Assembly (NCBI GenBank): GCA_008632985.1
Contig: QPGO01000072.1
Span: 186,001-250,000, forward strand
Length of the DNA: 64,000 nt
Source: Psammoneis japonica
Lineage: Eukaryota
Reading direction: 5' to 3'
The position numbers and the translations under genes are program-made. Position 1 is the first letter of the stretch. Each line of letters begins with the position of its first letter. A model generated the notes under the pieces. That model was not told the DNA's origin. It searched no databases and saw only the letters and a list, made by a program, of their open reading frames with translations. Of the stretch, positions 39,731 to 63,021 are shown in pieces.

Positions 39731-40039
39731 GAGACTGTTACTCACCGAGAAAAGAGATGGTCGCATGAAAGGGCGAATCGTCTGCAGTGGGAAACCGACC
39801 CGAGAGTGGCCAGACAAAGACAAGTCAACCGGCCCCACTGGTGCATCCTCAGAAAGAACACGGCTGCGGCGATTGTGGTTGGCGCATGTGAAGAGCTCGA
39901 TGTCATGAGCACTGATGCACCAAACAGGCAAAGACCAGATCATGATGAAAATTGCAAGAGCATTGGGCAGCAACATGCATGTGTGGCGCTGGAAAAGGGA
40001 AAGAGAGTCCACTGCGTCCAAGTCATTGAGTCTGTTTGC

Positions 40040-41489: not shown

Positions 41490-42130
41490 GCCAGAACAAG
41501 GCTTCTGGAGTGGGACAGTGTCCAGCAAAGCAGACACTCCCAAACTCTGCTTCTGCCATTTCTAGCATCACACTAGAAAGGAGGTCTTGTGCATCATGTT
41601 CACCATTCACAGCAGCCTCTTTCAACCAATGCACAGCATGATGGAGTGACTTTTTCAATCTGCTGCCCCCCCTTGCAAAAGCAGAGCCCCAGCGAATGCT
41701 GGCCATTCCTGTGGTGTTGAGCGGCAGAGAGTGCCACCGAAAATGCAGCTTCGGGATTGCTTTCACATTCGTCACACATCAATTGGCTCAGACAAAACTG
41801 AGATGTTGCACAGCCCATCTCTGCTGCTTGTAGAAGGTGCTTCTTGGCTGTTCCCTTGCATTTCTCCATGCCTTCCCCTGCCAAGTGGCAACATCCCAAA
41901 GTCCTTTGCAACCTCACATGACCATGCTCCACAGCATGATGGCACCACTCGAATCCTTTTTCATCATCTACAACTGTGCCACTCTCATCTTTGTTCACAC
42001 ATGTCTCAGCCAAAGCCACCTCAACCCAAACTTTTCCACTCTTTGCATGGTTGAGATGCTGCTCAATTCTCTTCTCCATGGAATCGGCAAATGGTGTCCT
42101 GCAATGGGGGCATTTTGAAAAGTCAACCTC
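41490..42130 (-). pseudogene. Sel1-like repeat protein relic (preceded by a CPxCR RING-like end)
   Basis: CPHCRTPF...KGFEWCHHAVEHGH..LQRTLGCCHLAGEGMEK..TAKKHLLQAAEMG..SQFCLS...GQHSLGLCF..HAVHWLKEAA matches the Sel1 consensus with Tyr replaced by Cys/His. Frameshifted. Confidence 0.75.
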
Positions 42131-43059
42131 AGCACCACCCACACGTGTCTGCAATGACAATGACAAAAAAAACTGGAAATCTGTTTTACCGCTGCCTTGC
42201 CACCACCCACACCAACACCGACCACAGCAGACCCACGTTTCCCAGTGCCCACAAAGGGCAGCAGGGACAATTTGGGCACCACTGAACGTTGTCAGAAAGA
42301 CAATGCCATTGACACATTGTCCAAAGGCAATGCCATTGGTGCATCATCAGAAAGAGGCTGTTTGTTTTAAGTCAGAATGGCAACTGACCAGATGCTTGTT
42401 ACACAGCAACCACAGTTGCTGTGCCTCAAAGAATGGACAAGCCCAGCCACACCACTTGGGAGACACCAAAACAAACACTGCAGAAAACCAAACACACGTC
42501 CATCTCCAAAGATGATGTGCTTGAAGAGATGTGAGAGAAATTCCTGGGATGAAAAACACCCCTGGGATGAAAAAACACCCAAGAAAGTCCAACATGGACC
42601 CCAACGAAGGAAAAGGAAATGATGGTCAGAGTCGTTGGATGAAACTTCCGTCATGCACAGAATTGTGCAGAAATTGTGTGCTGAAGCTGCAACATCAAAG
42701 AGCAAGAGGAGCAACACCAAGACTTGGAAATTCGGACCACTTGGAAGACCCATGACGACCCACTTTGGAACACCGTAGAATGTCCATCATCAATTGCAGT
42801 GTGTTGGAAAGAAAACTCAAAGGAAGTGAACTGGTGAGAAGAACAAGAGGACAAACCTGACACAGTCGTTGACTCGAAATTCTGGCCAAACGCACAGAAA
42901 TGTGCGTGAAATTTGCACTGAAATGACTGACTTGGGAAATTGCTGAATCGCACAGAATTTAATGTAGAAAACATGCTGACATCAGGAAAGAAAATGTGCA
43001 AAGAGATGCAACACACCATGGTGGCACCACTCCCCCGAATGTAGAAACAACAGAGTGTC

Positions 43060-43300
43060 CCCTCTGATGCCTTTTGGTTTTTCTGTCATTGGCACAACTG
43101 CCCAATGTCCCAAAGTGCCTGAGGAGGTTGGCATGCCACCACACTCTCACATGGGACTCTCACATGGGACAATCCCACTGGCGATTGTGCAGAATTGTGT
43201 GACAACAATGACAGCATTGGCTGGAAGTTCTTCCTGAATGGGCATTTGTCTGAGCATCCTCAGCACATGTGGGCTCCACAGCATGACATTCGAACATTCA
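43060..43300 (+). mobile_element. Possible non-LTR retrotransposon C-terminal relic
   Basis: Only the short motif DSIGWKFFLNGHLS, reminiscent of the IGW..F..G.LS motif after the zinc knuckle of diatom non-LTR elements. Confidence 0.3.
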
Positions 43301-43751
43301 TTTCTTTGTCGCATTGCACTTCCAGGTCTGAGAACACCTCCAAACATGTGATGCATGCCCCTTCTGTGTCGTTTTGCAGTCTCTTGACTTTGCCACTGCT
43401 TTTTGCTCTGCTTCCTGTTGTGTCTTCTTCACCCTGTCAATTTCTTCAATTTCAACCAGCAGTTCATGACATTTTGCCACTGTGATTTGCTGAAGTTTCA
43501 GCCTGTCTTTGGGAAGAATGCTCTTTGAATTGAGTTTTTTGGTGAGCTGCGCAAGGTCAGCTGCCAAGAGCTTGCAACATTTGTCCCTCTACATTGTAAA
43601 AGGCAATGCTCTGAGGCTCAATTTCTCAGGCGCAGGCTCTTGTTGTGTGGATGAGGATCAGCACCGATTTGTGAGCTGATCAAAGAATTTCCTTTGCACA
43701 GCTTCACAGAACAAGGTCAACTCCAACCAGCCGAGATCTTGTCATGATCAA

Positions 43752-44139
43752 GGGGGGTTGTCCCCATGTTTGTCCTGGAATTGTCATGGCATTTGAACAA
43801 GGACATTTGTGGTTTTATTTTTGAATGCAAAAATCACTTGCATTCACCCCCGATCGCACATGAAACTGAGAACATCAGGCACCACGATCGAAGCATGATG
43901 ATGATGGCAATGTCGACACAGCTCAAAAACGCAGTGGTCCATTCTCAAACATTTGATGCACATGTGACCTTTGATGCACAACAAACATGAAACAAATCAG
44001 AGTTGACAGACACACCACCTCTGTCACAGATTCATGGCTTGATGTTTTCGCCAAGGTGAAGCACCACGAAAATCAGGAAAAATCATGTGAGTCACAAGCC
44101 ACTCGGTTGCATTTGAGCCAAAAAAGCAGCAAATGACCC
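43752..44139. mobile_element. MITE copy 2 (family of 1162-1542)
   Basis: TCAA|GGGGGGTTGT...AATGACCC|TTGA; internal sequence colinear with copies 1 and 3. Confidence 0.75.
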
Positions 44140-44201
44140 TTGATCAACTCCAACTAAAATTTTGACCATCCACGTTTTTTTGCTCATTTGCGCATGATCA
44201 A

Positions 44202-44604
44202 GGGGGGTCATCCTCGTGTTTGTCCTGCCTGGAATTGCCCCGTGGCACCCAAATGAGAGCATTTGCAGCGTTCCTTTTTGAATGCAAAAATTGTTTGCAT
44301 TCACCCCCAATCATGCAGGAAAATGAGAACATCAGGCACTGCGATCAAAGCATGGCAATGACGGTGATGTCATGACATGGCTCAAAAATGCAGCGATCCA
44401 TCCTCAAACATTTGATGCATGTGTGACCTTTGAGACACACAACGAACACAAAACAAATGAGAGTTGACAGATGGGCCACCTCCTTCACAGACTTGTGGCT
44501 TGATGTTTTCACCATGGTAAAGCACGGTGAAAATCAGGAAAAATCATGCAAATCACCAGCCACTTGGTCAAATTTGAGCCAAAAAAAGTGGCAAATGACC
44601 CCCC
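44202..44604. mobile_element. MITE copy 3 with perfect 10-bp TIRs
   Basis: TCAA|GGGGGGTCAT ... ATGACCCCCC|TTGA. Confidence 0.8.
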
Positions 44605-45707
44605 TTGACTCCCACGACAGGGGCTGACTCCTCCAATCGGTTCATCTGGTGACACAATCTCTCTCCAATGTTGACCCCTTCAAACATTTGAGCCTCCTCT
44701 AGAGAGAGTTTCAAAGCCCATTCTCTGCTCTCTGTGATGTTCACATTTTGTTCCCACAACAATCAAATCAGATTTATTTTCTCGGATGCAATCAGCAGGG
44801 TGGCTCTTCTTGATGTTGCCATTGACCATGTGCAAGCAGTCACGCTCCCCCCCCCCAAAAAAAAAGTTTGCAGATGCACCCACGCATGACCTTCATTTTG
44901 GTTTGGAGGCACTTTGCATTCACACAAGTCCTCACAGTGTGAATCGTGATGCAGCTTCATTCACAAAGCAAAGGTGCCCCCCATTTGCCACCGAGTGTGA
45001 GATCCGCGGCCATTGCCGTGTCTCCTTCACAGCCCAAGAGTCAACAGACAAAGGAGGTGAAGCACACAGTGTGGGGTGATGGGCTGCTGTTGATGGCAAC
45101 GGAGACATGCGTCTTCAAGTGGGGTGTGATGGGCCAAACTGCAGTGGGAGCTCTGAAGAGAAGAAAAACATGTCAGTGCCGAAGTGCCGATGCTTCCTGA
45201 GCCCGTGGAAAGCACAAAACAGAGGATGTGACTCTCACTCAACATGAGGCTCTTATTTTCTGTTGTTAGCGCAAGTGGTGTCGGGGAGAGACAGCGTCTT
45301 GTTGAACAGTGACAATGTCAAAAGAGGAGGTCGATAGACGACAGACGATACAGCACCGGTAAAGCGTGGTTTTGTCGTGGTAAAAAGCGGAGCCTGCTCG
45401 CTCTGTGCTCTGGAGGGTACTGTACACACACACGGTACTGTAGTTACAGCAATTCAACGTCCGGGTTACTTCCGGGCTTGTGGACAGACCCATCGCCAAA
45501 AATCTGATGAACGACACAGCTGATGACTGAAAACCATCGCATCACAGAGATGACACAATCCACAGAAAACCCTGAAGAAGAAGGTCTCTGTTCTGTTTGC
45601 ACTTCTTGTCGACGCTTTACGATTGATCTCATTTTTGGACGATACGCAGTATCTCTAAGCGTTGAGGCCAACGACAGCAGAAAACGCATACCGGTTTCTC
45701 CAAGAAA

Positions 45708-46943
45708 ATGGCAGAAGCGCCGACCACCGTTCGTCGCAGCGATGCTGTTCTTCACGACACGAATCTTATTATCTACGGCGATCGCAACTCTATCACCGGC
45801 TTCAATATTGCGGTTCATGGGAACGACAATGTCATAAGCCTTCCTGCTAATTACAACGATGTTGGTGCAATTGTGCAACGTGTTCAAAACGGCTTTCTTG
45901 GAAACGGCTTGTTTGAAACAGGACTGACGGTTATAGGCAACGGCAACGACATCACTTATAACTACGCCAAGGTCACTGGCAATGGAAATGTTATCCATGG
46001 CAGGGATGCAACGGTTGAAGGGGACAGAAATAGCTTGAACGGTCCGTACTCAAAAGTGAAAGGAGATTCCAACTTTGTCGAAGGAAACGACGGAGTTGTG
46101 ACCGGAGACGACAACGAAATCAAGGGACGATGGTGTAAAGTGACCGGAAACCGCAACACCATTTTCGATGGCGATAATTCTAAAGTGGAAGGTCATTCTA
46201 ATACGGTGAACGGACGATATGCATATGTCCGAGGCAATCGAAATACAGTCGTTGGACATCATTGTAATGCTCAAGGAAATCACAATACATTGAGCGGACG
46301 ATATGCCAGCGCCCGCGGGGATCAAAACAAGGTCGACGGATACCATTCCAGCGCTAACGGTAACAACAATGCAGTTGCAGGAGAAGAAGCCGATGCCTAT
46401 GGCATTGGAAACACCATCAATGGCGTACCTGCCGATCAGGCGCTACAGGAACGCAGGCAGCAGCGTCAACACCGCATGGATCAACTCCAACAATTCCTGC
46501 AGCAGCGACCTGGGTCAGTGAATGAACAGCTAGAATACGCGCAGCTCCAAAGTGCCCAGCAGGCACAAGACACCATGCAGCAGGCCCGACACATACAGCA
46601 ACAGTTTGAGCAGCAATTCCAGAATATCTTTCAACCACTCCAATTTATGCAATTCCCAACCGCCCAGCAACCCCAGATTGTTGCTCCTCCCGCAGCTGCG
46701 ACTGTCCATCATCAGCCCACAATTCAGTTGAAGCTTCGTGGTGAGGATGAGACGGTGGCCGACAAGGACGATAATGTCTGCTACGTTTGCCATGACAACA
46801 AGGCTGTCGTGGTGTCCACTTGCTGCTACAAACTTATCAGTTGTATGGAATGCGCACGCATTCTCTATGAGAACAAGCCGGTTGGAGACGTTTCCTGCAT
46901 GAACTGCAGAGCGGTGGTTCGAGAGGTGGCGCGCATCTTTTAG
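45708..46943 (+). CDS. Protein with xxNxVxG heptad beta-roll repeats, Gln-rich linker and C-terminal RING-like finger
   Basis: 411-aa intronless ORF with normal Tyr. About 20 repeats such as GNRNTVV/GHSNTVN/GDSNFVE. C-terminus CYVC...STCC...SCMEC...SCMNCR. Confidence 0.8.
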   Translation: MAEAPTTVRRSDAVLHDTNLIIYGDRNSITGFNIAVHGNDNVISLPANYNDVGAIVQRVQNGFLGNGLFETGLTVIGNGNDITYNYAKVTGNGNVIHGRDATVEGDRNSLNGPYSKVKGDSNFVEGNDGVVTGDDNEIKGRWCKVTGNRNTIFDGDNSKVEGHSNTVNGRYAYVRGNRNTVVGHHCNAQGNHNTLSGRYASARGDQNKVDGYHSSANGNNNAVAGEEADAYGIGNTINGVPADQALQERRQQRQHRMDQLQQFLQQRPGSVNEQLEYAQLQSAQQAQDTMQQARHIQQQFEQQFQNIFQPLQFMQFPTAQQPQIVAPPAAATVHHQPTIQLKLRGEDETVADKDDNVCYVCHDNKAVVVSTCCYKLISCMECARILYENKPVGDVSCMNCRAVVREVARIF

Positions 46944-47234
46944 ACGTAGACATTTCGACTTTCTTATCGGCTGGCAACGTGCAACTGAGAGAACAGGAGT
47001 GATTGGTTTGCAAAGTACGCATGTGTTGAACGCTAGCGTACGTACGTCCAACGCTCGCCTTCTAAACTTAGTAAACAATGTGGTAACAAATGACCGTGCA
47101 CTTTGTCATCTGCTTTGAGGCATTTTCAGTGTAGGTTCGGTGATTTCCACTTGATGACTGCCCAACAGTCTCTTGCGTCGATAGTGCTGGCAATGAGTGA
47201 AGGATGTTTCATCCTGTGAGAGTTGTCCGGTTAG

Positions 47235-50200
47235 AAGGTCCGTTCGGAACCGTAAGGTCCTTTTTTTAAAATAGAAGATTAAGGAAGCCTATGTAGAGCG
47301 GAAGGCAACAGCAGAGGGAGGCACGGAGGTAGCTGTAGAGACGGTAGAGTAAAAAGGTCGATGGACGCAAGACGAAGGGCGTTTTGTGGAAGGTATGGGT
47401 GAGGAGGGGGGCAGGGAGAGAGGAGGTGAATCGGAGGATGTGCGTAGAAAGGTGAAGAACAACGTTGTAGCCAAGAGTTTGGGTGGCCCACTGGGATGGG
47501 GTGGCTGTACGGTAGGTGTTTCCAAAGCGATCGGCGGACAGGCGACGCCATGCGGAGTCAGCAGAGGGAAGGATTGCAGACGGAGATGACAAAGCGTAGA
47601 GGAAGGCGGAGTGGGGAGGCATCGGAGTGACGAAGGTCAGAGGAAGAGGACCAGGGTGGCTTGGGCTGAGAGCAAACGGAGGGGGATGTAGAACCAAAGA
47701 GCAAGCGGTGGGCAAAGTAGCCGAGACCACCAAGGTGATCTACAGTGAAGGGGAGCAGAAAGATGCCATTGTCGCCAAGCGAAGAAACAACAAGGGATCC
47801 ATCGGTAGAGGAAGTAGAGGGGCCAAGAAACTTCAATCTCGCGCTCGAGTGGTGTGCCTCAGTTAAGATAGGAGAAGAGGGGGCAGGCAGACCTGGAGGA
47901 GGGCGAGAGGAAGCTTGAGGGACGGTGACGTCCACTGCAATGTAGTGATGGCGGGAGGGAGCGGAAAGGGAGGCGGGAGGGGGGATTGAAATGCCGACAT
48001 CGGCGGGACGGAGAAGCGGGCGGGTGGGGAGTAGGTTGGTGGGTTCAAGATGAACGTCATTGGGGGATCGACAGAACTCTGCAAGAGGACCCAAAGTTTG
48101 GGCTAGGATGAAAACAGTGTCACGGAGACCATTGGAAAGCTTGGACTTGTGAGCACGGCGGCAAGAAAAGGCATGATCACCGTAGGCATCCAGAATGGCA
48201 TGGCCACAGGGACAGGGAGTGTTGACAAGGGACGGAGGAAGGATGGGGAGACGAAGCTTACGAAGGGCGGCAACAGCGTGGGCGTCCGAAGAAAGGCAGG
48301 AGCTTGGAAAGCGACGAGAGAAGGAATGAAGAGGGAGGCTTGTAAGCGGAGACAGCAATGAAGGGAGTGAAGATTGCACGTCGTAAGATGAGTTAGCAAG
48401 GATGGAGGTCACTGCTTGTTGCTGATGTTCATGGTAGAGACGACGGGCCAGACCGGGGAGAGTGGCCGATTTAACCAGGGCAGCCAAGGAAGAAGAGGAA
48501 AGGGTAGAGGCGGAAGCCAGAACGGGAGCACAACGGCGGAAGAGCGTATAGAGTCGTAGGGAAGAGCGAGGGTTGGACCAGGAAGACAGGGAGAGCCGAA
48601 AGCAGCGCGGAAGGGAAACAGAAGCGCCAGATGGCAGGCTGACACCGTGCGAAGCAAAGCGGAACGAGCGGAGAAGCGACACCAAGAAGGAAGGAATGGC
48701 GGCAGTTGTTGGGTCCCGGAGACCAAACCCGCCTAAGGAGGCAGGAAGGAAGGCGATGGCAATGGAGTGGTCGGGAAAAGGAGCGGCGAAGGAAGTGACG
48801 TAGTGTAGAAAGCGGTGAGTGACGGCAAGGAGGAAATCTTGAAACGGAGAGGTCCAGAGAAAGGGGTCGGGAGGATTGTCGGGGTCGAAGTTGCAGCAGA
48901 AGTCAGCTCCAAGGAGGTGAGCAGAGGATGGAACAAAACAGTGCTTGAAGAGTTGAGCCTGGGTTTGTTTGTCATGGAGACGGGTGAGAAGCATGTCAAC
49001 TTTGTCGGAGAGAGCAGAGGAAGTGTCGGAAAGGAAAGAGGTGGCGAAGTCGTGGGAGCCGAGGGGCTGTCCAAGGAAGCGAACACCAGAGGTGAGTTCG
49101 GGGTTGTAAGAGGGGTCATTGGCAGGGTTTAAGAAGGAAAGTGCAGCACGGAGAGAATCGGCGCGGGAAGGGGGAAGAGCAGGGATGGGGCTAACACCGG
49201 CAATGGAGGTGAGGATCTTGGTTTTACGGAGGTTGAGGGAGATTCCGCAAGGGGCACCGAGGGCGGAGAAGCGTTCAAGGAACCATGGAAGTACGGAATG
49301 GGGAAGGAAAGTGTGAGCATCGTCAATGTAGGAGCCAACTGAGACAGAGGAACGGCCAGGAATACGTTCTTGAAGCTCTTGGTTAATCGGACGAAGAACC
49401 AGAGAGAGGACCAGGCTGGCGAAGACAGGGCCGAGAGGGCATCCTTGGGCAAATCCCTCTTCTTGAAGAAAGGAGCCCCAGGAAGAGTCGGGTCGGCGAC
49501 ACCAACATGCATTGGAACTTTGATGTAGAAGGTCAAAAAAAGGAAGCAGAGGATGGAAGGCAGGGGTGGAGGTGAGAACGTGTCGACAGGCATCTCGAGA
49601 TGCTTCGTTGAACATGTTGACGAGGTCAAGAAGAAGAAGAGCCTTGGTAGAGTCGGCAGAAGAAAGATGCCGTTCAATGTTGGCAAGAGCAGAGTGAATG
49701 AGATAATCGAGGCCACCTTTGACACCAATGCCAAATTGACCATCTGGGAGGAGGCACTCGGCAAATGCAGAACCAAAGAGAGTCATGACGACGGAGCCGG
49801 CAATGCGACGAAGAGCAGCACCGACGCCAATGGGGCGAAGCTTGTTGAGGTCGCTGGCATCTTTATGCAGAGCGACAAAGTAGTTCGAAGCAAATGAGGA
49901 ATGGACGGAGGAAGGAATGGAGCCATGGAGTAGAAGAAGGACAAGCTCACGAAAGGATGACAAGCAGGGGCGTTGAGCAACACCTGTTGGGGTTTTGGTA
50001 GAATTAGAGGGCGCAGGACTTGAAAAGGTCGGTAGAATCAGCAAAGACACCGGCAGCAGTCCCAGGCTTACATTTGGAGAGAGCGGAAAGAAGAGCATCG
50101 GAGGAGAGCTCAATGGGCTCATTATGAAGGGAGGAGGCCGAGCGAGTTGAAGGAGGATTAGGTAGATCGGAGGGGTGCAGGCGAGGAGGGTAGAGCTTGA

Positions 50201-51210
50201 GGATGGCAGGAAGGCGCTCAGGAGCAACGGCAGCAACAGGAAGCGCAGAGGTGAGCTTGGAGCAGGCCGAGTGAAAGTCATCTTCGTCGGCGCAAACTTG
50301 AGCGGAGCAGCAACAGGTGGAAGCAGAAAAGTCGGGGGAAGATGAGGAGAGGCGTGGCGCATGGGAGCAGGCTTCGTGGTAGAGTTGGCGAATACAGCCA
50401 CGGCGGAAGAGGGACAAGCGGGAGGCAATGGCAGGGCCAAACTTGGAGCGTGGCGGGACAGGAGCAAGAATGAGAGCTTCAAAGAGTAAGAGCAGCTTCC
50501 AGAAGGGAGCAGAGTCACGTTGCCACGTAGGAATGAGGTGGGAGGGGTCAGAGAGAGGCTGGGAGGCGGCTAGTACCCAGCTTGTCACATGATGAAGAGC
50601 AGAGTAGAGTTCCTTACGGGCGGAGGACGAGAGCTTGCGGCGGCAGGAAGCTCGGAAAGGCGGAGGCTCGAGTGCAAGAGCATGGAGCCATTGTAGCGAG
50701 GGGCCCCAGTCACCTAGATTATGGAAGGACGAGAGAACAATGTCAGTGTTAAGGGAAGAGCGAGGAGCGAAGTGCTTGTTCTGCAAGTGATTGCGAAGGT
50801 GGGTGGTAGACAGGCAGGTGCATTGGCCATGATTGCAATGCCTGCAGACGTGCAAACCAGCGGTGTCGAAGAAGGACGTGGGTGCATGAGAAAGCGAGAG
50901 GCGGGGATGCTCCTGGCGAAGATGGCTGCGTATAGAAGTAGGAAGGGATGATGCATCAATGGAAGGAGGGGACCAGGAGCAGAAGGGGCAAGTTGGCGAG
51001 GCACGGGCTTCGGTGGGTTCCACGAGGCGATGAGATCGCGGAGGGAGTCGATGTCAGGGGCTGCAGCCCGGATGGCTTCTTCGTAGAAGGGTTGCCAGGT
51101 AGAAAGGCGGGCCGGGCAGTAAGTACCTACGAAGGCATCAAGGACATCCAAGAGTTCCATCTCGCGCTGGGACTGTTGGGGAGAAACCGATCTGAGTTCC
51201 ATGCCGCAAC
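47235..51210 (-). mobile_element. CRE-clade-like non-LTR retrotransposon (C2H2 fingers, RT, restriction-like endonuclease)
   Basis: N-terminal CPFC..H....H and CRHC..H....H. RT motifs KLRPIGVG, GQFGIG, LDLVNMFN, GFAQGCPLGP and YIDD. C-terminal CPCG..D.YGDHAFSC and RPADV...AVDVT...LPF. Short A-tail on the minus strand (T7 at 47261-47267). Frameshifts near 50005 and 47600. Ends are approximate. Confidence 0.85.
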
Positions 51211-51375
51211 AGTTCGTGACAAATTTTAGTCGATGTAGTCATACATATCATTTGTTCACATACGATCCTGAATACGTTTCAATGTTTCAATATTCACACT
51301 TACAGTACAACGTCTGACGTCGCCCTATTGCGTGCGGATCTTTGAACCGGCGAAAGTGGTCAGCAAGAAGCGTTT
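51211..51375 (+). repeat. Diverged direct repeat, copy B (partner at 39585-39730), abutting the 5' end of the CRE-like element
   Basis: Shared blocks as listed for copy A. Confidence 0.8.
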
Positions 51376-51485
51376 GGGTGGTTGTCGGTTGTGAGTGTTA
51401 CAGTAGAAGTATTTTGTGCGAAGTCCATAGCAAAGTGTCGTACCCCCTTTGTTCCATTTGTGAGTGAGCTTTTGCATGGTATACG

Positions 51486-53026
51486 ATGGGGCAGTTATGC
51501 AGCAAGTCAGCTCCGTCCAGCGTCGAGAGGAATATGGGAGATAGTCCGAGGAAGGAACCTACAGCATCAGCTCCGCCACCTCCAGCAGCGCCAGCAGCTG
51601 ATACTACAAAAGACGAGCGCACGAAGGAATTAGAGTCGTTTCGGGAAAAGTTCCGAGGATCCGTGTACTTTGATGCCCTTGATCATTTTGAAGAAGATGA
51701 AGAAGCCTACAAAGTTGAACCCTTGCGCTATGCTCCTGCCGCAGCTGCCAACCCGCACCCACGTGCCTCGATTGCTGTGGACGTGGACGCCACCATGCTC
51801 AAGGATAAGCGGGAGGACATGAATCAACGTTCCGCCTCTGTCGTTGTTATGGAGAATCTGAAGTCGCCTTCTATCAAACTCAGCATGGAAGGATATCCCG
51901 GAGATTTGACTCCGACGGAACTTGAAGCTTGTAGGCTGTTTCGCCAGCGACTCAAGCAAAAGGATCCTGCTTACTATGACATGGTGTTGGCGTTGGCACC
52001 CGGTGAGGAAGAGCCTTACTCGATCTGCCGCTTTATGCGAGCGAGGAACTTTGATGTTGATGCTGTGATTGAGATGATGGACGAGTCCATTGGCATGTGG
52101 AAGGATGCAGCAAAGCATAAGTTTTACCCCACAATCGAAGATGCAGTTGGGTGCAGCGAGGCCGTCTTCAATTCGCAGTATCCCTCTGTTTGGTCTGGTC
52201 TTGCAGAGAATGGACAGTCGTTATCTTCCTTCCAGCAAGCGCCATGTCCATTGAAGGAATACAGTGTTTGGCTGAGGTTGACCAGTTGAGTAATTATTTC
52301 TGGTACACCTCAAAACACAGGTTTGCAAAGCGCTTGATCGAGCTACAGGAAGATAACCCTCAAGTTGTTGTACGTGCAGAACAATTTTATGTCGTCGACT
52401 TGAAGAATACAACTTCATCACAGTTCTCAAAGACTGCTATTGAAGCCGTGAAGAACATGTTCATGCCATCCTCGTGTTTCCCCGAGATTCTTAATAAGGC
52501 GGTGGTTCTAAATGCTCCAAGCTTCTTCTCCTTCATCTGGCGCATCGCGAAAGTATTCCTGGATCCACGTACGCAGCAGAAGGTTGAGATCTTCTCCAGT
52601 GCCAGCAAGGGTAATGAACGGTTGAAAGAGCTCATGAAATCTGAGTACATTCCATCTGACTACGGTGGTACGGCGCCCTCCATTGATGAGATCTTTCGTG
52701 AGCAATACTGTGGTGCAGGACGTCGACAAGTTCATAATCTAATGACTCTTGAAAAAAAGAGAAAAACGGACTGGAAGTTCACCTTGAACGCAAAAGAACG
52801 CGCGACCGTGACAGTGTACAGTTCTTCTCCCGGTCCAGCTGACTTTGTTGTTTCATCTGGCGGCAAGAGTATTGCGCAGTCAAGTGTGAAAAGCAATGGC
52901 AAAAAGGGCGCGTACTCGACAGAGATTGCTTCCAAGTTGGAGGGCTCCGGCAATTTTCAAGTCTCGGCTCATTCGCAGTCGTATAGCACCGAATACTTTT
53001 TGGTCATTGTCAGTATCATAATGTAG
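51486..53026 (+). CDS. Sec14/CRAL-TRIO lipid-binding protein (one apparent 1-nt frameshift near 52213)
   Basis: MGQLCS N-terminus (possible acylation site), GYPGDLT, ICRFMRARNFDV, VVDLKN, CFPEIL...LNAPSFF...FLDPRTQQKV, IPSDYGG. The two ORFs join as ENG/TVVIF if one base is added. Confidence 0.82.
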
Positions 53027-53519
53027 CAGAACAAATTTTAAGTCCAATGTCAGAATTATGTACCATACTCCGATTATCAACAATTTCGCCCTGTTTCAAT
53101 CAAATTAGTTGTCTAATCGTGGAATGAATTGTAAAAGAATAATGGGAGACACGATTGCCAAAGTCTATCAGCTAGAAACGAATGTTCAGATGAAGAACGG
53201 CTATTGAGGCTTGCAAGGGGCTCGAGTCACTTAGTTCAGTTAGACTTGCTTCTCTCTTGATCATTCTGTTCGCAAGTTCGAATCACGGAACTACGACCTG
53301 GTCAATCCTAAGACAAGATGAAAAAACCGCAGAACTCGGAAAAAGTCCCCTCTAGTTCTAGCAAGCCGGTCACTTCCCTACCTCTACTAGAGGATATGAA
53401 GGTTAAGTCTAACAAAATCAGTTTAACACATACACAAATTACCAAAATTTGCAAAACCATAGAATTCCCATAGCAACTGAGTAGAGCGAGCCACGCGTAA
53501 TTTCCCTTGGTGACTCATC

Positions 53520-54166
53520 TCAAGGCTCTTCCTTCTCAAACTCCTCCAACGACTTTCGCAGGGACTCTGACGGCAAAGAATGCCTGCGTTTGTCTTCATT
53601 TGCGTCTTCATCTTCTATTGAAAAGCCGGCGGACAGCAACTCTTCAGAATTTTGCGGGTCACTGATCGATACCCGACGCTGTGGAGACAAGGAGGACAAC
53701 TTCTGTCGCCGCGCCTTCTCCTGCTCATCCAAGAGAACCCCCATTTCATCCCTTTCAATCTCCATCACTGGACCCATCTGATCTTCTGGATCGCTTTTTG
53801 TAGTAGATGCCGTGTCTTGTCGATTTTGAAGGGCCTTTTCTTTGACCGTGACGGTACTTTTCCCTAGTTCTGTCGTACTTTCTGCTTCCAATGGCACGCT
53901 TGGAAGCGACACAGTCATACGACGGGAAGCTCTAGTCATGTCTGGAAGGTTTGCCGTCCCCTGACATATCGCATATCGCGCAACTCTGTACCACCTCCAA
54001 TGAGGGTAGCATTTCTTCACGGATGCATATCGTGGATGCAAATGGAGGAAGAAATTGAAAAAGCCTTGAAAAGGTTGCAATGTGTTACCCAACAGCACAA
54101 TCCAATACTTTGGGGGTACGTTCTCCACAAGCCGTTTTGCATTTGCAATGGTGATCCAGGCATAAG
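53520..54166 (-). pseudogene. 3' part of a 7TM GPCR-like (cAMP-receptor/Git3-like) gene interrupted by Copia
   Basis: YAWITI...LQPFQGFFNFFLHLHPRY followed by a hydrophilic tail. It joins in frame to 61414-62299 when the element and one TSD are removed (IFFNT|YAWIT). Confidence 0.8.
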
Positions 54167-54400
54167 AGTCACGACTCAACGTCATTCTGGTCGCATCTCA
54201 CGACTACAACCCAGACTCAGATTTTCTCTTCGAAATAATTAGCTCATCACAAAATCGATTCAAACAGAAGCAACGACATTCGTCATAATTTCTAGACAAC
54301 GACTTTCAAAAAGCGTCTGTTTACCTCTGTCGCTATTCATATTGCTACCAACCTCCGAGGTCTTATCCATCCTACTCAGCTGCAGGACTGTATCTCGACT
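54167..54400 (+). repeat. 5' LTR (AGTC...GACT termini)
   Basis: Ungapped match to 61175-61408 with 12 substitutions. Confidence 0.95.
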
Positions 54401-54413
54401 GGTCACAGAGACC
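54400..54413 (+). other. Putative primer-binding site
   Basis: TGGTCACAGAGACC directly at the 5' LTR end; resembles the tRNA-iMet type TGGTATCAGAGC. Confidence 0.5.
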
Positions 54414-54562
54414 AATTTGCGCGTTGACGAGAGCTCCTGACCGAGTCATCGTCACGGACGCTTTCGGTTTTTGATTTTGAAGCAAACCCGGGAAATAGCT
54501 GAGTCTCTCTCGCTTCTCTCGTCTTCACCCTAACAAGAACCTCCCACACTACACTCTCTGTC

Positions 54563-57500
54563 ATGGCTGCCATCGATCCAGATGTTCTGGCGAAGGCGTT
54601 TGCCGATGCAATGGCCGCCAACGCCGCGGCGACCGCTCCTCCGGCTCCAACCAAGCCGTTACGTGGTGGAATTCACCCAACCCACGGGGTTTACATTGGT
54701 GGTTCCAAACTCAACAACAACTGCGAACAATCCAACGACAGAACCTGCCGACTCGCCTCTCAGCGCCGTCATCCCAAGGCTCTCGACTCGATAGAACGAT
54801 CTCTCCGCGATCAACAAGCTTCCGCAATGACTTCCAAGTTCAACGGTCGACTTGAGATTTCGGACGGTTCCATCAACGAGCTTGACAAGGACCATTTCGT
54901 CAAGACTGTTCGAGATCTAGTAGAAGCCCACGGTCAGCAGACGTTCTACCATGTCAAGGACAGCGACGACAAGGTTCAACATGTCTTCGACCATCTTCAC
55001 GAGTTTACTGTGACCGATCTCGTGAATGAGTACACGGTTAGGAAAGCAGCTACCGATGATGCCAAGTACGACGAGATCGAGCTCGACGATGTCGGGCTCT
55101 CTCAACTTCTCGTTCACTCAAGAATCACTGACACCTTTCGCGAGAAAATCGAGACCAAGTTCAACCATCTTTCGGACTGCCAAGACTACCCTGGATCTGT
55201 TCCATTCATGATGGCTCTCGACACTTGCAACACTAGCGCTCTAACGAACATTGAGACGGCTGAGAAGCAGCTGGAAGACCTTAGTTTGGTTGACTATCCC
55301 GGCGAGGATTGCACGGACTTTGCCACCGAAGCTCTTCGCATCGTGAAAATTGTGCAGACCGACTGCGCGCTTCCGGCGAACACAAGCTCCAAGCTACTCC
55401 ACAAGATCTCCTCTACGTCCTCTGAACACTTCAATCGCCGAGTCTACAACAAGCTCGACGACGTCAAGGCTGTGGAACGCAAGTGCCGCCTCAAGAATCC
55501 TGCTGACATCGTGTCCGACAGTGATTGCAGAACGCTCGGACCGGTCGGCATCATTGCGTGGATTCAAGAGCAACACAATGAACTCGTGAAGGACGGGGAA
55601 TGGCCTGCATTAGTCGCCAAGCTACCCGAGAGTAATCTTTCAACTACGGACAACCCTGGGAAGACGAAGCACTGTCATGGTTGCGGTCTCGAGGGGTGCG
55701 CCAAGAAGACGTGTCCGAAGTGCAACGCCAAACCGCCGCGCGACGATCCTCCTCCCAATCCGCCGCCTGCAGACGACCCCTCCAAGAAGAAGAGGCGACC
55801 CATCGCTGTCTGGCGCACTAAATTTGACGGAGAAACGAAGAAGGATAAGAATGGCAAGGAATGGAAGTGGTGTGCCACGTGCAAGGCGAAGGGTGCCGAC
55901 AAACCTGGAATCTACCAGAAGCACTCTACCGCGGAACATACCGACGACCGCAGGCAACCTCCCAAGGAGACCCCAGCCGGGAATTTGTCTTCCGTTGCTG
56001 ATCCGGACAGTGGCGTGCCCATGGGTCCGCCCGCTCAGACTACCAAGGAACCAGAGGGAGACGAATCCGACCCCAACGAGTTGGTTTTCACGGGAATGTG
56101 GTGCGCGGCTACGGATCCCGTTGCCGACCCGGATTTCTGTTCCGCCCCTGTTGCTGCTGCAACCATTGTTACTCCGGCTTCTTCGGCCGAGAGGGAGAGC
56201 GATGCAGTCGTCAGTGCTGAGGTGGTTTGCATCGAAACGAGCCCACCTGCACTCACCTCAGTCGTGGATCCAGTCGTGTCTCCCATCGTGGTTGAGACTG
56301 TCACTCCCGAAGACGCCGATGACTTCTACGAACACTCCGACGCTTTCTCTACCTTTGAAAACGAACCACCGGCTATTGAGTTGTTTCCGGCCTCGAAGCT
56401 GTACTCCATCAAGCATCCAGATGAGTTCTTTGACGCTCCCGCACATTTGACGGACATGCTGTCAGACGACACCAAGTTAGATCTCATCCTTGAACACGAC
56501 GTACACTTTGAAGACGCACACTACGACTTGCCTCCGTGTGTTACGTATCGTGGCTTCGATTTCTACGATCCAGAGGTCCTGGACACGGATGATTGTCACG
56601 AGGACGTCGAAGACGAGCCCACTTCGCGTCGCTCACTCTTGGGTCGAGTCAAGCTGTTCACATTCTGGCTCGCCGCCATGTTTTGGGAAACGGTGCTGCA
56701 TCTTTGCTTTGCTCCGATCCCATGCATTCCTCGAGCTCTACGCCGCCAGCGCAAACTCCCAACTTTGCACGGGTTTCCAGCCTCCTGGATGGTCCTGTCC
56801 GTTGCAGTGATGGTGTGGTCAGCAGTTTACGCCGGTCAACAGCCCGAGCATCCCTTCTCGCACGTGCCAAGTCGTTTTTCGACCGCTGGCTCTCAAGTCT
56901 ACCACATTGTGGAAGAGCTAGATGACCGGATAGTGTTGGATGCGGGGTCACTGTTCGAATGTCACAGGATCAAAGGCACGCAAGTACTCACCGAGTTTGT
57001 CGCGCGCCATCCATCACACGCACTGAGCACTCGTCTCAAGGCCTGCTGGGAGAGCCCAGAAGTGGCTGAACGGTCTGATGCGATGGACGAATCAGCCTTC
57101 TTTGACACCTGTGAGGAACTGGAACCTCTCGACGACCAGAAGCATTTCTTTGACGCTCTTGAGGACTTCAGCCCAGATTTCTTCCGGTTTGACAAGCTCT
57201 GTCTGCCGCATCACATCGTGGACACTGCCCATTTTCAAGATCCTGTGGAACTGTTGGAGGAAGCAAGTGTTAGACCAGTCGTCTGTGACACCTCCACCAT
57301 CCAACTGCTCACCGGACAATCACAAGCCGACCTCCTTGCATCCGATCCGCAGGCTCTCATCGGTCTGTCGGACGAGGCTCTCACGGTCGTCATGGACACT
57401 GGTGCCACGTTAGCTGTTGCCCCCGACAAAGATGATTTTACGGGGCCTGTGACTGTTCCCAAGAAACCCTTGCAGATCAATGGGATTGCCAACGGTCTTG

Positions 57501-60500
57501 CCATCCAGGGTGCCGGTCCGGTTGCGTGGGTGTTCACAACGCCGAGTGGGGCTACCATCCAACTGAACACCATGGCATGCTACGTCCCTGGAGCCCGTCA
57601 GCGCCTGCCATCGCCTCAACGCCTCTTCAACGAAGAGAAGGGGACACGTGGGAAGTGTGAGGGCGATGAAACCACTTTCCGTTTACATGTTGACGGGGTG
57701 GGCAAGTTGGTCGTGCCATGTCATCCATCAAGCCACTTGCCTGTTGCGTCGATGACCAAGGGCGCATCTGCCGCTCCTCAAGTGAACCTTCAGGTCCTCA
57801 ACGAGGAGAATCAAAACCTCACGGCAGGCCAAAAGCTTCTTCTCGAAATGCACGCCCGTTTTGGCCATTTGAACTTTGGTCGCGTCCAAGCACTTCTCCG
57901 CGCAGTTCCGTTCCTTTCGAACCGTTTCAAGTCCGCAGCGAAGTGTGACCACCCAAGATGCGAGGCATGCGAATGTGCTAAAGGTCACAGACGCTCTCTT
58001 GGATCTACTCACAAGTCGACAGTCCCTGAACGCGACGGGGCCCTTCGAGCTGACCATCTTCGACCGGGTCAGGCTGTCAGCGTTGATCATTTTGAGTCGC
58101 GCCTTTTAGGCCGCACCTTCGACTCTTATGGCAAAGCCACGTCCAAGCAATTCAAGGGCGGTTGCATCTTTGTCGACCACGCCTCTGGCTATGTCCAGGT
58201 CGAGCACCAACTGGGTTTCTCCGCTGTTGAGACGATGCGCGCGAAGCAAGCGTTTGAGAAACATGCTTTGGACCACGGGGTCATCGTCCAAGAATTTCTT
58301 GCCGACAGTGGCGCTTTCAAGGCCAACGCTTTTGCACAACATGTGCGAGAACATGAACAACATCTCCGTTTTTGTGGAGCCAACGCCCATCATCAGAACG
58401 GCGTCGCAGAGCGGGGCATCCACAGCATCTCCAACATGGCGAGAGCGATGTTGCTTCATGCATCAATCCACTGGAAGGGGGGAATTGACAGCTCCCTGTG
58501 GCCCATGGCAGTTTCTTGTGCCACGTGTGTCTACAATGTCACCCCAAATTCCAAAGGACATTGCCCAGTGGACATTTTCACCGGTTCGACAGTGCCAAGA
58601 CATCGGTTGCGCGACATTCACACATGGGGATGTCCAGCGTACGTACTTGACCCGACCCTCGCTTCCGGGAAGAAGCTCCCGCATTGGGAGCCTCGCACTC
58701 GTCGCGCTTTGTTCGTGGGACTCAGCACCATCCATTCCAGTGAGGTTCCTTTGGTCCTCAATCTTCAAACTGGAAGTGTTGCACCTCAGTGTCATGTGGT
58801 CTTTGACGATCTCTTCACCACCGTGCCATCAATCGAGAGGGAGACGGATCCACCTGATCACTGGGAACACTTGTGCCTCAACCAATTGACATGCATCCCT
58901 CTGGAGAAGGATCAGGCAGTTCATTTACACGATGAGTGGCTCACCCCTCCAGAGCGTCAACGTAAAGAACGAGAACTAGCCAGAGCAACACGCATTCGCG
59001 GGCATTTTGAGCCCACTCCATCGATTGCTGTGCCGGATTCACCCACTTCTCGCGACGACGTCACCGATCGAGTCGCACCTGCGACTCAGCAGCCAACGCC
59101 ACCAGTCCCACCTGCGACTCAAACTCCTACAGACTCTGCGGACTCTGCGCCAATTCAGCCACCTGAACCTCAAGACAGTGACGGACTTCCGCCACCCGAA
59201 GCGCCGACGGAACCAACAGCTCCTCCCCCAGTCGAGACACCTCCTGTGATGAATCCAGAGGGAGCGCCAGGGCTGCGACGGTCTTCACGGTCAACCAAGG
59301 GACAGTTCAACTCTGCCAAGTTTGTAGATGAGGTCTACTTCAGCTCCGTTGAGAAAATGCCGCCACCGATCGGACACGAGGCTCAACTGGCGCATCTGGC
59401 GACTCTCGAGACAGATTTGGACAGTGGCACCATCAATGTCGGCGATCCACGAGCCTGCGCAGCTAGCAAGAAAACCAAGGACCCTGATGTGCCTTCGTTG
59501 CACAATGCTCTGAAAGGTCCGGACTCCGACGAATGGATTGAGGCGATGAAAATTGAAGTCAACGCACTCGTGCATCATCGAGCCTGGAAAGCAGTCGAGC
59601 GTCAGCCGCACATGAATGCACTTCCAGGCACATGGGCACCAAAGCTCAAGAGACTCCCAGATGGAACCCCTCTCAAGTATAAGGCCCGATGCTGCGTCCG
59701 CGGTGATTTGCAGAAAGAAGGAGTCGACCACTTCGAAACCTGCGCGCCGGTTGTGCAATGGTCCAGTGTCCGACTCATGCTCACTGCGGCATTAAAGGAG
59801 GGATGGACCACACGACAGGTGGACTGTGCCACAGCCTTTTGCCAAGCTGATGTCGCCGAGGAAGTTCACATAACACCGCCGAAGGGATTTGCGCCAAGGT
59901 CGGGACTCAATGTGGTTCTCAAACTTTTGAAAGGACTGCACGGCCTAAAACAGTCTCCCAAGGGCTTCTACGAGAAGTTACGAGCTGGTTTAACCGAGCG
60001 CGGATGGGCACCTTCAGCCATGGATCCCTGTTTGTATTTCAAAGAGGGCATGATGTGTGTGGTGCACGTCGACGACACCGTTTTTGCTGGAGCTTCAGCT
60101 GAAGCTCTAGAAGCCGAAATTCGCAAGTTAGGAGTCTCCGATGACGAACATCGCCACGCATTTGAACTTAGAGACGAAGGAGAAGTCGGTGACTTTCTCA
60201 GCATCAAGATCGAAAAGCTCTCCGAGGGTCGATTTCTACTCACTCAACCCGGTCTAATTGACAAGGTCCTGCGCACCGCACAGATGCAGGATTGCAATGG
60301 AGCATCTGCTCCAGCTCTACCTGCGGCTGTTGGTGCCGACACGGACGGCCTGCCTTTTGATGAACCCTGCGATTATCGCTCAGTTGTTGGAATGTTGATG
60401 TGCTTGGCAGCGAACAGCCGGCCAGACATTGCACATGCCACACATCAAGTGGCTCGATTCTCGTTTGCGCCCTGAGCGTCCCATGCTGCTGCAGTGAAGC

Positions 60501-61153
60501 GGACACTCCGACACCTCAAAGCAACTGCTGCTGAAGGTCTCATTCTCAAACCTGCGCAAGATCATCGAGTTGATTGTTACGTCGATTCTGACTTCGCGGG
60601 GTCATTTGGTGTGGAAGATGGTCAAGACCCAGTTTCTGTCAAGTCCAGGACTGGATGCCTTGTCCACTGCGCCGGCTGCCCGCTTGTCTGGGTGTCCAAG
60701 CTGCAGACTCTTGTGGCATTGTCGACTGTGGAAGCGGAACATGTCACACTTTCTCAAGCTGTGCGCGATCTCATCCCCATTCGTGAAGTTCTCAAGGAGC
60801 TCAACCACCACGTGTTCGGAAAGTCTGACCGCCAAAACCCAATCACGACTCACTCCAAGGCTTTTGAGCTTGCAACCCAAGGCACCGATGACTCGCCTGT
60901 AGAGCAGAATGTCCTGCCTGCGTCCGTTGTGTACGAAGATAACTCCGCGTGCCTCAAGTTCGCACGTGTGCCCAAGTTGTCTCCGCGAACCAAACACATC
61001 GGCATCCCACACCACTGGTTTAGGACTAAAGTCGAACAATTGGAGATCGACATCCAACCCATCAGCACTCTAGAGCAACTGGCCGATCAGTTCACGAAGG
61101 GACTACGGACCGATGCGTTCCGCACGGCTAGAAAGGCTCTCATGGGCTGGCAA
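54563..61153 (+). pseudogene. Copia gag-pol polyprotein, inactivated
   Basis: Protease VMDTGA; integrase HARFGH..CEAC, VSVDH, LADSG, NGVAER; RT; RNase H YVDSDFAG, EAEH, YEDN, LADQFTK. One in-frame TGA at 60473-60475, RT motif HVDD at 60065, and the probable original stop now CAA at 61151-61153. Confidence 0.93.
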
Positions 61154-61165
61154 GCTCTCTCGGTT

Positions 61166-61174
61166 GAGAGGGAG
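61166..61174 (+). other. Polypurine tract
   Basis: GAGAGGGAG immediately before the 3' LTR. Confidence 0.8.
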
Positions 61175-61408
61175 AGTCATGACTCAACGTCATTCTGGTC
61201 GCATCTCACGACTGCAACCCAGACTCAGATTTTCTCTTCGAAATGATTGGCTCATCACAAAATCGATTCAAACAGAAGCAACGACATTCGTCATAATTTC
61301 TAGACAACGACTTTCAAAAAGCGTCTGTTTGCCTCTGTCGCTGTTCACATTGCTGCCAACCTCCGAGGTCTCATCCATCCTACTCAGCTGTAGGACTGCA
61401 TCTTGACT
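61175..61408 (+). repeat. 3' LTR
   Basis: Ungapped match to 54167-54400; carries 11 of the 12 apparently derived substitutions. Confidence 0.95.
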
Positions 61409-61413
61409 GCAAG

Positions 61414-62299
61414 TGTTGAAGAAAATCAGTGCGCAGAGGATGGATCGTACGGCAACTCGGCGACCGCACGTGTTTCCAGACATTAGATTTGACCCTTGGA
61501 AGCTGCTTTCGCGTCTCATGGCCCTAATGTTGCTGTTGATGCTGCCACCCCGTCTTTGTGCCTCCTGTCGATGATCACATTCTCGGCGAAGCACTGTGTG
61601 GCAAATGACGGCAAGAGACACAAACTGTGCGGCAAGCGCCAGCAAGGTGGGCACCAGGTTGAAAGCCCATTTGTAGATTTCGTGATCTTCTCCTCGTTGA
61701 CAGTCAACTCTTGGATTTGAAATGCACCCCAGCGGGAAAGAATTGATGGAGCATCTTCCCACCGGTGCGGGGTTGTAAATGTCGAGTCCAAGTCCGGCAA
61801 AAGCCGTTCCCAGCGTAAAGAGCATTGCCGTCACATGAAAGACGGGCTCCATCCTGCGAGAAATAAATTCATCACGCAATCCACCATGCAGGGTCACCGC
61901 GAAGAAGATCATGAGGAAAGCATTGTAGATCGGTTGCGCGTGCCCAAGCTGAAGAAAGAACCCCTGCATGGCACACGTCTGGGTGTTGCCATGTGTTCCT
62001 TCAAACGGCAACCTCGATGGCATGAGCCAAGTCCCCAGAAAAAACATGAGGGAAAAGGGAATGTCCGAAACGCCAATGGCAAACATGAGACGATTCTGAG
62101 TCTTCCTGAGTTTGAATTGTGAAGACTTGAGAATCATGTGCACAATGAGGCAGGATCCAACGAGAGACAGAGCACCAGTGACTCGAGGCATGTTGTGCAG
62201 GGCTCGTCGCTGTGCTTGTGTGAATCTGGGTCCACGAGGTCCGAGAAACTGCGGCGGCCCTCCTGCACCTCTCGGCGGCCCTCCTGTTGTTGCATTCAT
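61414..62299 (-). pseudogene. 5' part of the interrupted 7TM GPCR-like gene, TpA-mutated
   Basis: PRVTGALSLVGSCLIV..NRLMFAIGVSD..GNTQTCAMQGFFLQLG..YNAFL..MEPVFH..CSINSFPLGC..CQRG. Several expected Tyr appear as His/Cys (IVHMI, GTHGN, EDHEI, ICHTV, ILCAL). Confidence 0.8.
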
Positions 62300-63021
62300 G
62301 GTTTGTTCTTCACTTTCAAACCCAGTTGTGTTTTGATGCAGTTTGTCTCTTCATCAGCTGGCAACTTGAAACTGTGTCAACCCTTTGTCCTTTAGATTTT
62401 ATGTTGGGTTAGGGAAACTACAGCTAGACTGGTGTCAGTGTCGGGGGTTGGGGACGTTGGATTTTTGTCCGCGAAGAGAGGAGGAGTTTTACCGCTACAG
62501 TGTATTAGCATGTCTGAAACTACCGTAGAGTAGCGGCTATTATGAAGAGGAAAGTGGGTAAATTATAATTTTTATCTTGAGTAGATGTTATTTATCATCT
62601 ATTTTTTAAAGAATGTCTATTGTACATTTCCCCTACGTACATATTAGTACTGTAATATGATGTATACAAACTTTTTCATTGCACTTTATGTACACTTATG
62701 TTGTAATGTACTGTGATCTATCGTTATTTATGGTAAAAGAGTCTTTATAGATTTGTCTTTTCAATGCGAAATTGTTATACTGTAGAAAGCTACGTGAGAC
62801 AAAGCGACGACATCGAGAGGTAGGTTCACGCAAGAAAACTGTAGAGTTTCCCAGTGCTGCTAGTAGCTACGTAGAGGCCATGATGATGATCAGAATTGTT
62901 CGCGTTAGTCTTGCTTTTGTAATGCTCTCTACTAGTAGTGATATGGATGGATCAAGAATTTGAATTTCGAAGAAATGTACTCTATCATAATGCTGATTCT
63001 ATTCAAAACTGGCGCTAGACG

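Follow-up and report, generated by a model that had tools for sequence, protein, structure and literature searches.

A stretch of 64,000 nucleotides from the diatom Psammoneis japonica (in the following the window; assembly GCA_008632985.1, contig QPGO01000072.1, positions 186,001 to 250,000 of the forward strand, with position 1 as its first letter) carries a Ty1/Copia-type retrotransposon that is bordered by two long terminal repeats (LTRs) and spans 7242 bp (54167-61408). It is very likely that this element inserted recently on only one of two alleles, and that a locus-restricted mutator subsequently turned TpA into TpG or CpA in the DNA of the insertion allele. The hypermutation took place at the level of DNA and after integration, is specific for one allele and for TpA, hit both strands, and affected an entire domain that spreads from the element into its flank.

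LTR differences and the insertion-free allele

The 5' LTR (54167-54400, plus strand, termini AGTC...GACT) and the 3' LTR (61175-61408, plus strand) measure 234 bp each. A preceding sequence-only reading of the window had described 12 differences between them without indels, ten opposing TA to TG or CA and two changing CG to TG, and alignment and script reproduced this exactly: all 12 differences are transitions, ten at TpA and two at CpG, while none falls elsewhere. The 13 TpA and 13 CpG sites counted before in either copy were recovered by script as well (TpA: 12 in the 5' copy, 4 in the 3' copy, union 13; CpG: 13 and 11, union 13). If TpA positions are taken from either copy, the binomial probability that at least 10 of 12 differences fall within the 26 TpA positions of 237 is P = 1.4e-8. 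Ten of the 12 differences amount to A:T to G:C.

At nine of the ten TpA differences the 5' LTR reads TA and the 3' LTR either TG (six) or CA (three), and a single site (54383/61391) shows the opposite, with CA in the 5' and TA in the 3' copy. Both CpG differences read CG in the 5' LTR and TG in the 3' LTR. Expressed as conversion, the 5' LTR is nearly unmutated, with 12 TpA kept, one changed to CA at 54383 (1/13) and no CpG affected (0/13), and the 3' LTR has lost 9/13 TpA and 2/13 CpG. A repeat search of the window returned the LTRs as its sole direct-repeat pair (54165-54401 and 61173-61409; 237 nt, 95% identity, no indels); beyond this pair, no further copy of the element or of its LTR was found in the 64 kb.

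Contigs from three public runs of one sample (X1, X2, and X3) were matched to 53501-62500; the X2 contigs cover the flanks only and X3 gave no match. One contig each in X1 and X2 represents an insertion-free allele, joining 54163 directly to 61411 and skipping 7247 bases, which equal the 7242-bp element plus a 5-bp duplication. The joint reads ...GGCAT/AAGTG..., that is a single ATAAG, which confirms both the insertion and its 5-bp target site duplication (TSD). The left TSD copy (54162-54166) still reads ATAAG, while the right one (61409-61413) now reads GCAAG. Thus the LTR boundaries and the TSD copies that had been proposed hold, in agreement with the empty-site contig. In X1, the variant flank contig has a depth of 26.7 of 57.3, hence both alleles occur in one read set. 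The insertion is heterozygous in the sequenced sample, where just one of the two alleles carries it, and the persistence of an empty-site allele at about half depth supports the earlier view that it is young.

The element sits inside a host gene and disrupts it. If the element is removed, 62299..61411 joined to 54163..53520 on the minus strand yields a frame of 510 codons plus stop with a Met start. No Pfam match was obtained for this interrupted gene; it has a relative of 508 aa (P0198) and a further relative (P0199). The 3' part of the host frame (53520-54163, minus strand) is identical to the empty allele, with 17 TpA of which none is converted. Over 53543-54163, X2 record 7 shows no difference and 17 TpA, and the X1 and X2 contigs match the window without any difference over 621-663 bases of this 5' flank.

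The other side of the insertion is a hypermutated single-copy flank that holds the 5' part of the host frame (61414-62110, minus strand), as seen from the empty-allele contigs and from the outgroup test given below. Over 61411-62387, 37 places distinguish X2 record 7 from the window, and the 30 listed ones include 21 at which the empty allele reads TA and the window TG (10) or CA (11), and the reverse never occurs; 23 of the 30 amount to A:T to G:C in the insertion allele and one is a transversion. Within 61411-62110, 21 TpA are converted and 8 kept (21/29), and within 61411-62387 two CpG are converted and 50 kept (2/52). The stretch 62110-62393 is without a TpA site; beyond it, 7 TpA are kept and one differs (in X1 only).

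These allele data bear on two other explanations. First, errors of base-calling, polishing or assembly, arising at modified bases or among near-identical copies, might create apparent differences, and the family of the element is indeed highly repeated, the library type of the runs is unrecorded, and the LTR letters come from the assembly. However, in X1 the two versions of the single-copy flank form distinct contigs, each with roughly half of the depth, X1 and X2 agree with the window exactly over the other flank, the changes are allele-specific and lie on one side of the insertion only, and the window allele lost residues that outgroups conserve. Furthermore, according to a preprint, Illumina-sequenced lines of the chlorarachniophyte Bigelowiella natans gained the same signature as new mutations (Mettrop et al., bioRxiv, 10.64898/2026.01.13.699255). 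A technical artifact is consequently very improbable.

Second, error-prone synthesis at WA motifs during repair by a polymerase-eta-like enzyme had been put forward as one candidate in the sequence-only reading. TA is a WA motif, and two A-to-G changes at ApA (61657 and 61658) adjoin converted TpA. However, polymerase eta also makes A to T and A to C changes and acts on AA too, whereas transversions are almost absent here (12 of 12 LTR differences are transitions, and one of the 30 listed flank differences is a transversion) and ApA is otherwise untouched, with an AA observed/expected ratio of 1.14 in the older blocks described below. The candidate is thus a poor fit, and we give it hardly any weight.

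Direction of the mutations

Two LTRs alone give no polarity, and the preferred change of repeat-induced point mutation (RIP), CpA to TpA, yields identical letter pairs. In a reversed process, C to T changes would turn CpA/TpG into TpA as in Neurospora. A reversed direction had been named in advance as a refuting condition; this was tested and the outcome favors TA to TG/CA. ATAAG is found in the left TSD copy as well as in the empty allele, thus the right copy GCAAG is derived. It equals ATAAG with both TpA converted, as had been suggested and as the single ATAAG of the empty allele bears out; the TpA of the first change arose only on insertion, from the last T of the LTR and the first A of the duplication.

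Outgroup proteins tell the same. At the 15 host residues that differ between the alleles, P0198 equals the empty allele seven times and the window allele not once, and P0199 equals them three times and once, respectively. Within the polyprotein of the element, 374 columns conserved to at least 80% in 86 relatives were evaluated: 3 of 15 conserved Tyr are kept, five are changed to Cys (TGY) and four to His (CAY), and 60-100% of the other conserved residue classes are kept. The reverse transcriptase (RT) motif YVDD reads HVDD (codon at 60065). At least three such Tyr-to-Cys/His changes were found in the query only (1/87 sequences) and in none of the 86 relative proteins.

A pair of paralogous DOMON-gene pieces (5756-6736 vs. 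14779-15723) provides a further comparison. The normal copy has 39 TpA, none of which survives in the mutated copy, where 17 have become TG and 14 CA; of 42 CpG, 33 read CA or TG and two are kept. Empty allele, TSD, outgroup proteins, Tyr codons and paralogue pair hence agree on TA to TG/CA. TG and CA outcomes are balanced, with TG:CA counts of 6:3 for the 3' LTR, 10:11 for the flank and 17:14 for the two paralogues, so that the claimed conversion on both strands stands. In addition, affected regions lose TpA (observed/expected 0.05-0.22) and have a low TpA/ApT ratio, the RIP index, of 0.01-0.33. We thus regard the reversed direction as practically without any chance, and classical RIP is excluded. 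The summed change types of the contigs over element and flanks (A>G 156, T>C 161, G>A 175, C>T 141, and 129 transversions) are contextless and were unused for direction.

The same data speak to ADAR-like RNA editing that was fixed by reverse transcription before integration. Part of the internal TpA loss could predate the insertion, and ADAR enzymes prefer a 5' U, as stated in the preprint (10.64898/2026.01.13.699255). However, editing before integration can neither make the LTRs differ nor alter TSD and flank, and it would be one-stranded. Since the LTRs differ, TSD and flank are changed and both strands are hit, such editing is excluded for those changes and, as an explanation of the locus, has next to no probability. 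RNA editing could contribute to family-level differences only.

Extent and rate of the mutated domain

The mutated domain is about 5 kb long, roughly 57.0-62.1 kb, and comprises the 3' half of the element, the 3' LTR, the right TSD and ~700 bp of host DNA. Per 500 bp, 8-13 TpA were counted at 54.5-57 kb, 3-8 at 57-61 kb, 6-7 at 61.5-62.5 kb and 57 at 62.5-63 kb, while the 5' LTR (1/13 TpA) and the 5' flank (0/17) are spared. On its right, the domain ends close to where the disrupted host gene starts (62299). Just past this start, 62501-63000 forms a sharp AT-rich stretch (34% G+C, 57 TpA per 500 bp), which marks the right-hand limit of the TpA-poor domain.

Because the domain crosses the LTR limits and the single-copy flank is heavily converted, repeat boundaries are not followed. 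Consequently, the assumption of an active A:T to G:C mutator acting on repeats requires revision: a mutator at work after the insertion stands, but action on repeats as such is not demonstrated, given that the 5' LTR and 5' flank are spared and a single-copy flank is mutated. Per site, TpA conversion is roughly ten times faster than CpG decay, in line with the former statement that it is faster (flank 21/29 TpA vs. 2/52 CpG; 3' LTR 9/13 vs. 2/13).

At 60401-60402 the window reads TG (a Cys codon), all three covering contigs read CA (His) and the relatives have Tyr. Judged from these letters, it seems that the same original TpA was hit independently in separate copies, in one case on one strand and in the other on its complement.

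Several points weigh against our interpretation. Of the 30 listed flank differences, nine are not TpA conversions, hence ordinary or other changes occurred too: three concern CpG, three read T in the window and C in the empty allele outside CpG, two are the ApA A-to-G changes beside converted TpA and one is the transversion. Furthermore, the flank tally covers 30 of the 37 differences. A preference for the 3' neighbor of TpA was not significant (TAC 13/34, TAT 9/29, TAA 5/24, TAG 6/27; 57 sites). Some of the TpA missing inside the element may already have been absent from its source copy. As to the data, the 12 LTR letters rest on the assembly, and none of them is among the 40 best-supported of 775 differing places in the read-level listing of element and flanks. 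The letters of an element from so abundant a family could in principle reflect assembly or polishing with reads of other copies, while the flank and TSD evidence is free of this problem. The runs X1-X3 derive from one sample and are possibly the own source of the assembly, and in this respect they are not independent of it. Finally, both the chemistry and the targeting of the mutator are what we infer.

Older TpA-poor blocks

Besides the young domain, the window holds older blocks. One is almost free of TpA and CpG (1500-13400) and contains the degraded tail of a cytochrome b561/DOMON-family gene (about 5711-6736). By dinucleotide composition, TpA and CpG are also depleted at 31500-33500 and at 40000-45000, while the block at 33500-35974 is depleted of TpA and largely keeps CpG (observed/expected over 33500-35500: TpA 0.08, CpG 0.70). 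Over 16.9 kb of old blocks the observed/expected ratio is 0.05 for TA, 0.15 for CG, 1.75 for CA, 1.90 for TG and 0.85-1.27 for all others, as compared to 0.53-0.55 for TA and 0.86-0.96 for CG in 25.7 kb of ordinary sequence. The old blocks comprise 0-3 TpA and 0-8 CpG per 500 bp, with TG plus CA at about double the usual number, and in 500-bp bins the borders of affected regions are sharp.

The TpA-poor yet CpG-bearing sequence at 33.5-35.5 kb and the young domain together show that TpA loss comes first. The end of this block (35473-35974) duplicates the tail of a STAND NTPase gene (27798-30977) with 82% identity; 8 of 12 TpA of the other copy read TG or CA in the duplicate, and 18 of 26 CpG are kept. 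Next to the first old block, the first DOMON unit (12801-13444) has lost TpA and about half of its CpG if compared with five paralogous units, thus erosion extends into the neighboring host gene.

TpA is present in ordinary numbers in the tandem DOMON repeats, which are 86% identical. The STAND/AAA_16 NTPase genes at 27798-30977 and 36213-39386 are paralogues with ~71% DNA identity and are ordinary in both TpA and CpG; at this level of divergence, the mutator is not drawn by duplication alone.

No transposon domain was found in the old blocks, where 24 reading frames gave three Pfam matches, all below the curated cut-offs. Likewise, tblastn with eight Copia relatives found no Copia remnant in them and returned only host-gene paralogue pieces and one weak RVT_1 match. 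The young domain is centered on the Copia element and also covers host coding DNA, and the old blocks include pieces of host-gene paralogues.

Proposed mechanism

According to the explanation that we favor, a Ty1/Copia-type element similar to the CoDi elements of diatoms inserted very recently into the 510-codon host gene. After integration, A:T to G:C transitions struck the A of TpA on either strand, on the insertion allele only. If this process ran to completion and the slower decay of CpG to TpG/CpA followed, multi-kb blocks without TpA and CpG and with about twofold TG and CA would result. Genes would be inactivated by missense changes, Tyr to Cys or His and others. By the genetic code, a change of TA to TG or CA cannot make a stop codon, thus inactivation proceeds by missense while frames stay open. 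We consequently rejected the long open frame as a sign of an intact element, as the mutator makes no stops and the RT active site is already altered.

The natural substrate of TadA/ADAT-like enzymes, the tRNA adenosine A34, follows U33. In our analysis, deamination of adenine by a TadA/ADAT2-like enzyme is the most likely chemistry; adenine would become hypoxanthine, as proposed for B. natans. One might alternatively envision the same process and targeting with the thymine of TpA as the modified base, for example as 5-hydroxymethyluracil (5hmU) made by a TET/JBP-type dioxygenase, which then mispairs or is misrepaired to give T to C. 5hmU pairs mainly with A, and in dinoflagellates it may favor TpA. 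Within a palindromic dinucleotide, A to G and T to C on the opposite strand are indistinguishable by sequence, and both outcomes are equally frequent here. In addition, a dinoflagellate TET/JBP enzyme reportedly makes 5hmU and helps to silence transposable elements (PMC11572971). Two papers on 5hmU that were searched for TpA are without mention of it. Evidence for 5hmU in diatoms was not seen, and the B. natans preprint favors adenine deamination (10.64898/2026.01.13.699255). We therefore consider the thymine route unlikely.

As regards the targeting, the insertion-free allele shares the promoter but stayed without mutations, hence the element is required. Judged by the domain limits, a possible trigger could be antisense transcripts from the host promoter that overlap sense transcripts of the element. 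Alternatively, these limits would suit a silencing state that spreads along the DNA.

One might speculate further that an old defense, common to distant lineages within the stramenopile, alveolate and rhizarian (SAR) supergroup and guided by chromatin or small RNAs, acts in cis on one allele. It would be triggered where host and element transcripts overlap, with its right limit at the start of the host gene, and would employ a relative of the tRNA adenosine deaminases. The same machinery or chromatin state would also drive CpG loss and thereby funnel silenced DNA toward a sequence left with TG and CA only. We offer this broader scenario as a tentative idea that is rather doubtful in its entirety. 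A role of the process in defense is likewise something that we infer.

Comparison with known systems

The sequence-only reading knew of no description of such a process. This no longer applies, since a bioRxiv preprint of 2026-04-14 reports hypermutation of TpA to TpG/CpA in integrated viral DNA of B. natans (Mettrop et al., 10.64898/2026.01.13.699255). In mutation-accumulation lines, 231 of 302 mutations fell into two integrated viral regions; 230 of them were A to G or T to C changes, and each of those 230 affected a TpA. New mutations arose in only some lines, at a rate of about 1e-7 to 1e-6 per site per generation. An ADAT2-like adenosine deaminase was proposed, and reverse-transcriptase and DDE-endonuclease domains were enriched among TpA-depleted genes (10.64898/2026.01.13.699255).

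Both cases have in common the near-exclusive A to G and T to C changes at TpA and the confinement to certain regions of an otherwise ordinary genome. However, they differ in several aspects. The host is a diatom and thus a stramenopile here, and a chlorarachniophyte, a rhizarian, there. The target in P. japonica is an LTR retrotransposon together with adjacent host DNA, with alleles before and after the event at one locus. In its accessible parts, the preprint contains no mention of LTR, Copia, CpG, flanking or diatom, whereas the present locus shows flank spread, a spared LTR and CpG loss. TpA is also erased further, to 0.05 observed/expected in the blocks of the window, compared to a Rho of 0.45 for the 186-kb region of a giant virus (nucleocytoplasmic large DNA virus, NCLDV) in B. 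natans. The type of evidence differs as well, comprising new mutations in lines in B. natans and comparative data only in our case.

In the literature, we found no report of the process in diatoms; the B. natans preprint was the sole matching paper, and the hypermutation passage in PMC9258296 concerns antibodies. What the present locus contributes is a diatom host, a retrotransposon as target, a process that works in cis on a single allele and reaches into a host gene, and a connection to CpG loss. The process is not general to diatom transposons, as none of 79 environmental loci of element relatives is erased of TpA (observed/expected 0.36-0.88); several of them are CpG-poor (0.22-0.37).

With RIP in Neurospora and other fungi, the process shares a local, dinucleotide-specific transition hypermutation that disables mobile DNA. 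RIP likewise leaks into neighboring unique DNA. However, RIP creates TpA from CpA/TpG and produces stop codons, whereas the present process destroys TpA and makes no stops. RIP is triggered by duplication and covers the duplicated segment. Such a dependence is not evident here: the family is abundant, yet the 86%-identical tandem repeats are ordinary, the 5' LTR and the 5' half of the element show little change, and the single-copy flank is hit.

The decay of methylated CpG leads to the same end products, and CpG is lost to TpG/CpA in the same blocks. Transposons of diatoms can be CpG-methylated. In contrast to such decay as a sole cause, CpG loss is the slower second component here (2/52 CpG vs. 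21/29 TpA in the flank), and one block has kept its CpG.

If the process is the same as that in B. natans, TpA-directed hypermutation is no quirk of one alga. It would then represent a second type of mutation-based genome defense besides fungal RIP and APOBEC-type editing, found in a major group of marine primary producers. The locus provides a natural before-and-after comparison that is absent from published work, with one allele bearing the insertion and one without it. This comparison demonstrates that the process follows insertion, affects one allele only, reaches ~700 bp into the host gene and stops near its start, and the allele pair renders target selection directly testable. A comparison of diatoms with and without the signature is open for finding the enzyme. 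Furthermore, TAA and TAG are removed and no stops are made, thus dead genes would persist as long open frames and be annotated as intact.

The element, its family and further observations

The polyprotein of the element (54563-60475, plus strand) is of the Ty1/Copia type and comprises 1970 codons, ending at an in-frame TGA (60473-60475). Its integrase-bearing part lies upstream of an RVT_2-type reverse transcriptase (Pfam RVT_2, E=1.3e-35), which together with the two LTRs and the 5-bp TSD is the arrangement of Ty1/Copia elements. Many environmental proteins, as well as proteins of Fragilaria crotonensis, share 52-59% identity with the integrase-RT part, hence the element is of the diatom Copia type. 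With CoDi-like elements it has in common the 234-bp LTRs, the 5-bp TSD, RVT_2 and this level of polyprotein identity, but the present copy is disabled (HVDD for YVDD, 3/15 conserved Tyr, in-frame TGA).

Beyond the TGA, the same frame continues (60476-61170, plus strand) and aligns to the C-terminal part of the relatives' polyproteins, where their consensus PRxSH...KRILRYLK faces AP(stop)ASH...KRTLRHLK in the element. At 60473, all 11 covering contigs read C (CGA) instead of the T of the window's TGA.

Among the contigs matched to 53501-62500, the family is represented by 3010 at a likeness of at least 80% and by 774 at 99% or more, and the summed contig depth is ~5000 across the element compared to ~55 on both flanks. 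A 30-mer of the LTR had no matches in metagenome contigs of the Joint Genome Institute (JGI).

Two other features of the window are worth recording. The region 46000-52000 is purine-skewed, with a plus-strand GC skew of up to 0.39, an AT skew of up to 0.35 and moderately low TpA, and 47558-50569 holds a minus-strand frame of 1003 codons with an RVT_1 reverse-transcriptase domain. The window also contains a fragment of a DHX57-like helicase, which assigns it to a diatom without a close relative among named genomes and sets it apart from B. natans: the named best matches are from diatoms only (46-58% identity), and the closest named full-length match outside the diatoms is from an oomycete, at 34%.

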